Shown: piece after piece, positions 25,536-28,111 of the stretch
Layout: each line of letters starts with the position of its first letter
Position numbering within the stretch: position 1 is the first letter of the stretch
Origin: Longimicrobiales bacterium
GTDB lineage: Bacteria; Gemmatimonadota; Gemmatimonadetes; Longimicrobiales; Gaopeijiaceae
Assembly: GCA_965248195.1 (NCBI GenBank)
Contig: CBDFIQ010000002.1
Coordinates: 2,528,001-2,592,000 of the forward strand
Direction of reading: 5' to 3'
DNA: 64,000 nucleotides
Notes under the pieces: model-generated
Seen by the model: only the letters and a program-made list of their open reading frames with translations
Database searches by the model: none
Told to the model about the DNA's origin: nothing
Position numbers and translations under genes: made by a program

Positions 25536-27338
25536 CTAGAGCGCAAAGGTGAAGCGTTTGTTGTTCTGTTGAATCCGGGTTACAACGGCATCGAGCTGCT
25601 GCCCCAACTGCATGGTTTCGCGCCAGTCGGCAAACTCGTATCCCACCGCCTTGAGGGCTGGGCGCGGTATCCACCCGCCGATTCCAGGTTGGATTTCGCA
25701 GTACAGCCCCTCGTGGCCGATCCTGGTGACGGTGACGCGAACCGCACTTCCCACCGGGTATTTTTCCACGATCTCATCCCAATCCACAACCTCCGTGACA
25801 CGCCGGTCGAGCTGAATGCACTCACTCGCAGCATCTACGCTCGCAACAACCGCAGTCGTTGTGAGTCCAGGCGATGGCGCAACGTAGAGTTGGTCCTCGG
25901 CGTCACAGTATGTCCAATCTCTCACCCGGATGTAGCCGAAGATTTCACTTTCTTCTAGCCACACGACGATGCGAGATTTCTTAATGGAGTGGACCGTGCA
26001 ACTGACCTCGTCGTTCGGGTTGATGTTGATGGAGGACCACGGCGAGGGCGTCTGCTGCTTCAACCCCAACCAAACTTCCAGACTCGCCGGGTCAGCCTCC
26101 AGGACGGTGAATTCACGGGATTCGCCGACCTTGAGGACGTCAGATGTGTTGCCGTGATAACCCCATGCGAGATCTAGCGAACGTATCCTTCCACTCACCT
26201 CGCCAATATCTACGAACGCAACCTTCGCTCCTACCGACATGACCAAGCCTTTGATCGCTCGCCCAGGGGCTATCCCTGCCTCTGCGAGTAACTGTACGGC
26301 GCCTTCGTCACCGAAGTAGAGGTCCTGTCTATGGAAGAGTGCGAGTGGAACGGATTGGGGCGTCGTCGTCCGGGTGCGGCGCACGACGGTGATCCGGTTT
26401 ACGAGCTTCACGCGTCGATCGGCACCAAGAGCCTTCACAACTTCGTTGCACAGAGAACCTTGATTTTCTCGCACTCCCAGGAGGTATACGTGCCGCGCAC
26501 CCAAGGCCAAATCTGTGAGCATCCTGCTCACGTAAGGAGCCGTTCCGTGCTCGGCGGTTGCGGCCTTCGAAAGCAATATCACGGCGACTTGAAGGTGCTC
26601 CTTAATGAATGTGAGGCCACCCGACTCATCGCCTACTTCACGGGTCGCGAGGTAGTACAACCAATCGGCGAAAGCTAAGACCTCCTCATGCAAGCCCCCA
26701 GCGGGCACCTTGAGCGCGACCATGGCATCCAAGTAGAACATCTCCTGGATTAGCATCGCCGCAAACAACCCTCCTCGGTCGATTTCGTCGAGGTGGCGTA
26801 GGTGTTCGCGTAAGGAAGGAAACTTGGCCACCCTGGGCCCAAGAAAATCGGTCGCGAAGGCACGCTCTGCGTCTGCGGATACCGAATTCGCGAGTCTCAT
26901 GAGGACGTGCATATCAACCGCCTCTACGAATTCCACATCCAAATACGGGCGAGCACGGGGGACTAAGATGGCCGGCAACGCAGACGCGACCGCGTTCAGG
27001 TAGTTCCTCGAAGGATCGGGCTCGTCTCGGATACGCACGATCAGGCGGCCGTCCCTGTGAAGAACTGGATCCTCCGGATCGCGGACCCAGCGAAGCTTCA
27101 ACCGTGGTGACTCGACACCCTCAGGAGCGGCAAAAAGTCGCCGATGCAGGTATCGGTTGACGTGCCCCTCGACTTGGTTTCGCAGTTTCCATCGTACGAC
27201 ACCACCGGCAATCCATGTGAAGTGTCCGAGAAGCCACCCGACCACCCGCTGCGTTGTGTCATAATACGTGAATACAAGTGCAGCGCCGGTCAGGAACGTG
27301 GTGATCGTACCACCCACCCAAGCGAACAGATCCGTCAC
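25536..27338 (-). CDS. Membrane-anchored protein with unknown central domain and three C-terminal S1 (OB-fold) RNA-binding domains
   Basis: N-terminal TM; RpsA-like repeats (G.V.SV....AFVDIG...DLAW...DVLKVG...LGLKQ..PSPW; W....EKYPVG..V.VTVTRI...G.Y.EI.PGI.G). Confidence 0.75.
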   Translation of the reverse strand: MTDLFAWVGGTITTFLTGAALVFTYYDTTQRVVGWLLGHFTWIAGGVVRWKLRNQVEGHVNRYLHRRLFAAPEGVESPRLKLRWVRDPEDPVLHRDGRLIVRIRDEPDPSRNYLNAVASALPAILVPRARPYLDVEFVEAVDMHVLMRLANSVSADAERAFATDFLGPRVAKFPSLREHLRHLDEIDRGGLFAAMLIQEMFYLDAMVALKVPAGGLHEEVLAFADWLYYLATREVGDESGGLTFIKEHLQVAVILLSKAATAEHGTAPYVSRMLTDLALGARHVYLLGVRENQGSLCNEVVKALGADRRVKLVNRITVVRRTRTTTPQSVPLALFHRQDLYFGDEGAVQLLAEAGIAPGRAIKGLVMSVGAKVAFVDIGEVSGRIRSLDLAWGYHGNTSDVLKVGESREFTVLEADPASLEVWLGLKQQTPSPWSSININPNDEVSCTVHSIKKSRIVVWLEESEIFGYIRVRDWTYCDAEDQLYVAPSPGLTTTAVVASVDAASECIQLDRRVTEVVDWDEIVEKYPVGSAVRVTVTRIGHEGLYCEIQPGIGGWIPRPALKAVGYEFADWRETMQLGQQLDAVVTRIQQNNKRFTFAL

Positions 27339-27372
27339 GGGCTTCGGAGTACGGAGAAGGTATCGGGTCTAG

Positions 27373-27642
27373 CTACTCGGCTCGGGCCGGTAAGCCGAGG
27401 CGTGAGGGATCTGCGATGACTTGAGGGCCGCTTTGGGTAACGATGATTCCCCCAACGTTTTCCCGTGTGAGCAACACGCCGGTGCGAGCACACGTAAGTT
27501 CCCCACGATCCAAGGGTGCGAGTAGGTTCCATTCTTCAAGAATCCGCCACAGATCGTCATCGAGCACTGCGTCGATCGGAAGGGTCGGCCTCGCAAGGCT
27601 GCCTCGCAACCCCCGCTTGGGAGACCGATGGGTCATGGGCAT
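27373..27642 (-). CDS. Small hypothetical protein (89 aa), probable partner of the S1 protein
   Basis: ATG 27642 behind GGAGGAG; IDAVLDDDLWRILEEWNLL...GELTCARTG..LTRENVGGI looks like a degenerate zinc-ribbon-type small protein. Confidence 0.6.
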   Translation of the reverse strand: MPMTHRSPKRGLRGSLARPTLPIDAVLDDDLWRILEEWNLLAPLDRGELTCARTGVLLTRENVGGIIVTQSGPQVIADPSRLGLPARAE

Positions 27643-27933
27643 GGGAACATCTCCTCCCGCTTTGATTTTGGGTCCTGGGAGAGGCTTCTCAATTGTAGCA
27701 TAGTGGCCCAACATTCTCCAGATGGAGCTTGGCGCGGGGGCGGGGGCGTCCAATCCATCCCATTCAGCCATTCCCGCTTCCTACCCTTGGCTCCATCGTT
27801 CGTTCGTTTCCGTTTTCTCGTTGAGGATTAGGAAAGCCTAACAATCTCCGCAACCCGACCTTTCAAACTGCTTGAAAACAAGTCCATTTCTGTGTACGTT
27901 TTTCTCGTGGGATTTGCGTTAATGCAAAAACCC

Positions 27934-28018
27934 CACAGCGGTGGACCACCTGGGAGTCGAACCCAGCAGTATGGCTTGATTAGGGGCGCGGCCGGCAAAC
28001 CTGCGTGGCCCCACTGTG
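27934..28018 (-). ncRNA. tRNA-like structured RNA (not a canonical tRNA)
   Basis: Minus strand: acceptor-like stem GGGCCAC/GTGGTCC plus A; T-arm CTGGG-TTCGACT-CCCAG; outer stem CACAGTG/CGCTGTG; followed by GGGTTTTT. Confidence 0.65.
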
Positions 28019-28082
28019 ATGACGGAGCCCCCGTACCGTGCCTGCCAGCGTGGTGCGGGGGCGAAGTCGTTCTTAGTTCATG

Positions 28083-28111
28083 ATCCTATGTCACCCCTCT
28101 GGATCTTTGAA
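28083..28111 (-). promoter_or_regulatory. Candidate sigma70 promoter for the tRNA-like RNA
   Basis: TTCAAA-17-TAGGAT on the minus strand. Confidence 0.4.

Follow-up and report, generated by a model that had tools for sequence, protein, structure and literature searches.

Cam1, the membrane effector of a type III CRISPR system, joins a transmembrane (TM) helix to a ligand-binding domain, and PMC10808066 describes depolarisation of the membrane after ligand binding. Alba-like domains are mentioned in the accessible part of PMC12458937 solely in Dpd helicases, and the accessible main text of PMC13092281 mentions neither Alba nor RNA binding. Here we describe a locus in a 64,000-nucleotide (nt) stretch of DNA from a Longimicrobiales bacterium (contig CBDFIQ010000002.1), hereafter the window. 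It comprises a large gene for a protein of 600 amino acids (aa), a small gene for a protein of 89 aa and a tRNA-like RNA element. On balance, and with some reserve, we favour the reading that the two genes form a stand-alone anti-phage cassette in a prophage cargo slot and that the tRNA-like RNA is an adjacent, phage-derived element.

The cassette rather probably has a role in defence. We read it so because the two genes are paired at all 24 other loci, the two proteins score well as a predicted complex, the spread of the family is patchy, defence genes lie nearby, a siphovirus encodes a homolog, the C-terminal tails fall into clades and the setting is a prophage. The family would be a compact candidate defence family of hundreds of clusters, whose set of domains was not found in the libraries or literature searched. 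The three co-oriented minus-strand elements that an initial annotation had seen within phage-derived cargo are all present in the sequence, and its picture of a membrane-anchored, nucleic-acid-binding cassette in defence-rich, mobile neighbourhoods is supported. It had not recognised the architecture as a named system. No PADLOC model fits, and no description of the architecture or of the RNA class was found in the literature covered, chiefly free full texts without their supplements, where candidate tables could list the family. The main features, all on the minus strand, are as follows.

25536..27338, minus strand: large gene, 600 aa (open reading frame, ORF; family of 722 clusters for residues 1-345; core model at a predicted local distance difference test, pLDDT, of 93)
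27267..27335, minus strand: N-terminal hydrophobic helix, residues 2-24, a probable membrane anchor (DSSP on the model), followed by a long helix, residues 26-68
26634..27209, minus strand: zincin-like domain, residues ~44-235 (structural match 1z1w), the predicted docking site of the small protein
26319..26615, minus strand: Alba-like domain, residues ~242-340 (structure match 8xap)
25539..26273, minus strand: three RpsA-like S1 repeats, residues 356-600, forming a swappable tail
27373..27642, minus strand: small partner gene, 89 aa (ORF behind GGAGGAG; same as database gene call P0212)
27939..28011, minus strand: tRNA-like element (acceptor stem with a G3·U70-type pair, discriminator A, T-arm; no D-arm)

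The two proteins and their predicted complex

At each of the 24 other loci, a homolog of the small protein (66-110 aa) is encoded directly upstream of the large gene, so the co-occurrence that the initial annotation proposed to check holds for the small ORF. Nineteen of these loci were reached through one motif (DQTRNILxA) and five through a profile search of genomes. The pairing covers core-only, long-S1 and short-S1 forms of the large protein, and the genes usually overlap or lie about 10 nt apart; in the window, the small gene ends 34 nt upstream of the large one and is preceded by GGAGGAG, the strong ribosome-binding site seen at the outset. At every locus seen, the two genes are neighbours, with near or full coupling between them.

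All 24 small-protein homologs carry the pattern CxxC...CxxxxC, that is, four putative zinc-binding cysteines; the window protein and its near relatives P0214 and P0215 retain the first cysteine alone. Fold searches with the small protein, a candidate treble-clef zinc finger by its family's cysteines, were weak, returning eL24- or LIM-type rows at Z of at most 2.9 and Foldseek E values of at least 0.8. The ESM Atlas gave unnamed clusters only, and one of the 24 small proteins matched PHROGs, in an unnamed family. One homolog, P0185, is listed by its source under an archaeal metagenome-assembled genome, and the cassette may therefore reach archaea.

For the window core (residues 25-345) and the small protein (residues 14-86), the predicted complex scores 0.76 versus 0.01 for the best control, with contact agreement of at least 87% and a partner pLDDT of at least 79. 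Of 157 solved complexes, 116 attained the mark used for this score, as did 2 of 215 mismatched pairs; these counts are only roughly valid with alignments of one's own. Partner residues 23-26 are modelled against strands 83-85 and 100-103; helix 111-124 also belongs to the interface. The small protein is thus predicted to dock on the zincin-like domain, pairing with edge strands beside the helix that bears N112. The docking site would correspond to the substrate cleft of a zincin. PDB sequence searches gave no comparable complex.

The large protein belongs to a wide family. A word-indexed homolog search found one true relative only, and an exhaustive search was required; with residues 1-345 the latter gave 722 representatives (clusters at 50% identity) at E 0.001 or better, the best 150 of which were used for the family analyses. 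The core of ~300 aa, which the initial annotation could not recognise, has no match in Pfam, NCBIfam or PADLOC (residues 1-345), the ESM Atlas holds nothing for it, and PDB sequence searches with the core and with the small protein returned nothing significant. The model of the core is confident and shows the N-terminal helix and the long helix, then a domain with alpha/beta and helical parts, and lastly a C-terminal domain. The proposed N-terminal TM segment is clear in the family, where hydropathy is at least 1.6 in 140 of 151 sequences (2.46 in P0004), but borderline in the window copy, at exactly 1.6. A structural homolog of the full core, 346 aa long, is encoded by a siphovirus (E 1.9e-18). 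Two loci, L031 and L055, have the large gene split into two pieces.

Structure comparison, which had been suggested for the core, resolves it into zincin-like and Alba-like domains. Residues 44-235 align with catalytic domains of M1 aminopeptidases, best with 1z1w at a middling Z of 8.3 (root-mean-square deviation, rmsd, 4.6; 172 residues aligned). The HExxH motif occurs in none of 149 family rows (residues 101-150), and identity as an active metalloprotease was rejected. At most, the large protein would be a pseudo-peptidase, given the missing HExxH, an rmsd above 4 and a Z within the range of common arrangements. N112, D142 and E199 are conserved at 93-98%, and the set of five polar residues N112, R130, D142, E199 and R233 at 73-98%. 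Residues 242-340 are predicted to adopt the Alba/IF3-C fold and match Alba 8xap far more closely (Z 11.4, rmsd 1.8, 79 of 81 aligned), the best four rows are all of Alba type, and Foldseek gives a probability of 1.0 with a best E of 1.2e-3. An Alba sequence profile appears neither among the 25 of 47 Pfam families shown nor among PDB profile matches to E 1. A Y-x-x-x-R-G-like motif, which we take to resemble the KARG motif of Alba, is found in 14 of 15 long-S1 members and 1 of 66 short-S1 members, and is absent in the window copy.

Could this core be an enzyme after all? The protein might be a membrane-tethered effector that degrades nucleic acid or blocks translation, with the small protein as its inhibitor; its site would be the Alba/Smr-like domain or the cluster N112/D142/E199/R130/R233, and the tails would deliver RNA or ribosomes. 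The fold class also holds Smr nucleases, the same domain matching 2zqe at Z 8.4 (rmsd 2.7, 79 aligned), and the five polar residues are conserved despite the lost zinc ligands. RpsA domains act in translation and NusA domains in transcription, which would suit such delivery. However, the Alba matches stand about 3 Z above Smr, the DLHG-type motif of Smr is absent from the family consensus, and the polar residues may be structural. We therefore consider such an effector unlikely; even so, it would most likely still be a defence or toxin-antitoxin (TA) system.

The S1 tail of the window protein has its repeats at about residues 356-430, 441-514 and 527-600. The profile of each segment matches RpsA repeats, and NCBIfam rpsA aligns to residues 357-598, far below its curated cut-off; the three RpsA-like S1 domains first noted are thus borne out. 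Identity as an RpsA paralog was rejected. Among 149 cores on the tree, 66 carry a short S1 tail, 15 a long one (proteins over 750 aa) and 10 a NusA-like KH tail, while 58 have no detected tail, some tail-less members being fragments. The KH tails are homologous to NusA KH1-KH2, far below the curated NusA cut-off, and form a clade of 10 of 12 tips with support 0.957; the long-S1 members form one of 15 of 18 tips with support 0.993. Fragments and outliers keep the short-S1 label from forming a single clean clade. Since many members lack a tail, core and partner should be the functional minimum, and the tail would modify sensing or affinity. The natural variants (none, short S1, long S1, KH) offer a ready-made test of what the system senses. 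Some genes annotated 'ribosomal protein S1' or 'RNA-binding protein with RPS1 domain' are members of this large-protein family.

The tRNA-like RNA

The 7-bp acceptor stem of the tRNA-like element includes a G3·U70-type wobble; a discriminator A and a perfect T-arm are also present, and a D-arm, paired anticodon stem, encoded CCA and tag frame are all lacking. The stem-plus-T-loop pattern has 51 matches in the 4.86-Mb genome, and since nearly all of these are true tRNAs, the motif is above chance. ARAGORN does not call the element, Rfam gives no match at the gathering score (the best being mascRNA, E 0.11), and its folding energy is ordinary (z -0.68). The tRNA-like RNA first noted is real, but the U-tract at about 27926, near which the initial annotation has it end, follows a stem of a mere 5 bp. 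The proposed promoter, TTCAAA-17-TAGGAT, is likewise present, at 28111-28083, but it is weak, and the promoter scan does not list it; in each of four runs, the single contig reported at 28083 deviates in the final T of the -10 box. The surrounding signals are these.

28020..28075, minus strand: stable hairpin 5' of the tRNA-like element (z -3.09; 1 of 200 shuffles equally good)
28083..28111, minus strand: weak promoter-like site, TTCAAA-17-TAGGAT (8 of 12 consensus matches; under the scan threshold)
25493..25512, minus strand: terminator-like hairpin directly 3' of the large gene (consensus match only)

Is this RNA a part of the system? The initial annotation proposed a three-part arrangement in which it serves as ligand, decoy or antitoxin; such an arrangement might be limited to the window's subclade. 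The RNA and the genes are co-oriented within the same repeat-bounded slot, the RNA pattern is above chance, and the large protein has four predicted nucleic-acid-binding domains. Moreover, the cysteine loss common to P0214 and P0215 indicates that the window's subclade does differ. However, the RNA is absent at all 24 other loci, none of them from that subclade; at 15 of them, the sequence ahead of the small gene is at least 400 nt long and so reaches the equivalent position, and in L058, just 10 nt separate the small gene from the preceding gene. The initial annotation had itself named absence from homologous loci as telling against a three-part system, and this absence is what all 24 loci examined show. 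Within 1.5 kb upstream, the other loci contain neither a tRNA gene nor a T-arm-plus-acceptor motif, save for one imperfect stem in L041, and the T-loop-like motifs upstream in L041 and L056 show no tRNA fold.

In assemblies from one study, and at low depth, contig 27 of run X4 (883 nt, depth 3.4) matches 27862-28059 alone and then joins unrelated DNA, and in the assemblies of one sample, the long contigs with both cassette genes stop at or before 27910. Sample variants fall inside the tRNA-like element, including a one-base loss at 27983. A look-alike RNA with the same acceptor and T-arm ends lies next to a tRNA in genome G476, whose assembly, 87% complete, yielded no core, and an unannotated one lies ahead of the tRNA gene pair of Microbacterium phage Skylord. 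The ends of the element are nearly identical to a phage tRNA-Lys (L063), and the look-alikes diverge in their middle parts. BLAST for the RNA in 250 genomes of the family gave short matches only, and a pattern search of order-level genomes matched in 1 of 400. The viral pattern search led to three tRNA-Lys genes of ordinary type and to one element that ARAGORN does not call, and a further pattern found nothing. It is thus hard to credit the three-part system, and the tRNA-like RNA has correspondingly little chance of being part of it. The element is probably a degenerate or specialised phage tRNA-like RNA of the slot scaffold, outside the two-gene system. An attachment-site remnant of a host tmRNA or tRNA was considered and rejected, as BLAST found no matching host gene and both acceptor strands are present.

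Apart from the cassette, L068 1471-1541 (G476), L076 1436-1527 (Skylord) and L066 1501-1566 are ARAGORN-negative or unannotated tRNA-like elements with G3·U70-type ends and a T-arm, the one of G476 having a CUA-containing loop. These elements may represent a class of phage tRNA-like RNAs with alanine identity.

Distribution, genomic setting and possible function

The core is sparsely distributed. It was found in none of 200 genomes of the same family, in 3 of 400 relatives of G552 and in 1 of 300 relatives of G551. RpsA matches swamped a search of genomes with alignment A2: about three candidates were scored in each genome, and the one extra core match in 400 genomes (G020) is therefore a lower bound. 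Viral contigs yielded no cassette locus, nor did metagenomes searched with patterns from the window's subclade, and plasmids gave RpsA-type matches only.

Clear defence genes lie in 5 of the 13 loci with scanned flanks. In L058, the cassette sits inside a type I restriction-modification (RM) operon, between hsdS and hsdR; L048 and L051 have type III-like RM genes, L050 has Lamassu and AbiEii, and L046 has PDC-S11 and a SIR2-like gene. Defence neighbours, whose enrichment the initial annotation suggested checking, are present at some loci in this count without a random control; 4 of the 13 show neither clear defence nor mobile-element genes in the scans. As side observations, L058 (2053-11657) holds both a long-S1 cassette and an NYN-domain gene (PADLOC HEC-09) within the one type I RM operon; L031 (8901-10948) has an unnamed pair by the cassette, a 164-aa protein and an ORC/CDC6-like ATPase, and L032 (5840-7833) a split HATPase-type gene beside it, each a possible further defence candidate.

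A different explanation is an accessory module with no part in defence, which anchors specific RNAs at the membrane or regulates them there and is found in islands merely because it is mobile. Alba, S1 and KH are non-catalytic binders, and L044, L055, L060 and L062 place the cassette among housekeeping genes. Nevertheless, scattered occurrence across phyla at about 1% or lower, insertion into an RM operon and carriage by a phage suit conflict genes better, and we hold such a module to be improbable.

How might a two-gene anti-phage cassette act? It is tempting to propose that a resting complex would sit at the inner membrane, with the small zinc-finger protein as a cap or chaperone in the pseudo-peptidase cleft. 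On infection, the Alba domain and the tail would bind phage single-stranded RNA; alternatively, the tail would be bound by a phage protein that targets RpsA or NusA of the host. The large protein might then cluster or shed its cap, and growth would stop through the membrane helix, an abortive infection akin to Cam1 after ligand binding. This cap-and-membrane mechanism, built by analogy, is tentative and may well be wrong. About as uncertain is the wider idea of a widespread bacterial immune receptor that senses through borrowed host expression machinery, its S1 or KH tails detecting phage RNA without a guide, or acting as decoys, and its output being abortive infection at the membrane. Such a receptor would consist of a membrane-tethered pseudo-peptidase/Alba core, a zinc-finger cap and tails gained in separate lineages. 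If true, guide-free RNA sensing or S1/NusA decoys would each be a new sensing mode.

Several points count against this anti-phage reading. The five defence neighbourhoods are a raw count without a random-neighbourhood control; four more of the 13 loci (L061, L031, L059, L032) have only TA, insertion sequence (IS), integrase/relaxase or ATPase genes, and in another four (L044, L055, L060, L062), the scans show no clear defence or mobile-element gene. PADLOC-DB 2.0.0 (2023), besides lacking a fitting model, gives no match to either window protein (E 0.1); among relatives, it matches 1 of 55 family members, weakly (E 0.0012), and none of 3 small homologs. No catalytic or toxic motif was identified in the large protein, its single membrane helix may be just an anchor, and that helix is borderline in the window copy. 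The window's small protein is without three of the four cysteines. Nineteen of the 24 loci stem from one motif, and no KH-tailed locus is among them. Finally, the tail is dispensable, as none was detected in about 58 of 149 members, some of them fragments.

The slot itself is bounded by recurring sequences.

28123..28258, plus strand: right border, a remnant 3' tail of a prophage lysis-module gene, with further copies in the genome
24551..24630, strand not assigned: left border, a short repeat common to many prophage-derived cargo arrays of the genome

The region is a mosaic of short repeats common to other prophage remnants (24551-24630, 28123-28258 and 33077-33188), flanked by two Mutator-family IS copies; a holin and a GH108 endolysin lie upstream, and two RelE-like toxin/helix-turn-helix pairs adjoin the cassette. 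We infer that it is an array of exchangeable cargo slots. The repeats at 24551-24630, 28177-28249, 29165-29240 and 33077-33188 recur at many prophage-derived sites of the genome, where they bound differing cargo (TA pairs and DUF6338-like, glyoxalase and ankyrin genes), an arrangement that looks like a cassette-exchange scheme. Contig depth in the sample assemblies is very high at 24564-24727. The IS copies lie at 19788-21163 and 33367-34742, with about a hundred near-identical copies genome-wide, and at G000 C1:1071378-1073597 an array of 17 tRNA genes is followed by one more copy of this IS. The stretch 21164-24429, with the holin, the GH108 endolysin and two accessory genes, has three other copies on contig C1 at 93-99% identity. 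Convergent with the large gene is a small GIY-YIG-like ORF (25261-25533, plus strand) that appears frameshifted past about 45 codons, and the cargo array includes an ankyrin-repeat protein (31036-32037, plus strand). Farther along, tandem ammonium transporter genes (39973-41385 and 41946-43457) lie downstream of a GAF-sigma54 activator.

Comparison with known systems

The arrangement first envisaged, a non-coding RNA upstream of a toxic protein, follows the logic of type III TA systems and retrons. The window RNA differs from these: its conservation does not follow that of the genes, it contains no repeats and has no Rfam match, and no reverse transcriptase accompanies it. Compared with tRNA-Ala and tmRNA, the element has the G3·U70-type pair, the discriminator A and a canonical T-arm, but it lacks the D-arm, paired anticodon stem, CCA and tag frame, and the host's tmRNA is intact elsewhere.

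Among gluzincins, Lit and IrrE are examples from defence or stress. The cassette resembles gluzincins of the M1 aminopeptidase type in residues 44-235, which align to their catalytic domains at Z 7-8.3; it differs in that the family has no HExxH (0/149) and the rmsd exceeds 4. The likeness to the Alba, Rpp20-Rpp25 and SpoVS fold in residues 242-340 is closer (Z 11.4, rmsd 1.8), although the Alba-like fold is here a single domain inside a bacterial membrane protein. From RpsA and NusA, the cassette borrows RNA-binding modules alone, and the host's own RpsA-like gene lies elsewhere.

With Cam1 (PMC10808066), there are clear differences. Pfam shows S1 only and no CARF domain in the cassette, and the scanned loci contain no CRISPR or cyclase gene. 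In their place, the cassette would combine a core of zincin-like and Alba-like domains with S1 or KH tails and with a zinc-finger partner, and its membrane segment is known here as a hydrophobic helix, not as a pore. Nevertheless, both would join a TM helix to a ligand-binding domain in the cytoplasm and do without an enzymatic effector, and in this respect Cam1 provides a model for how such a protein might arrest growth at the membrane.

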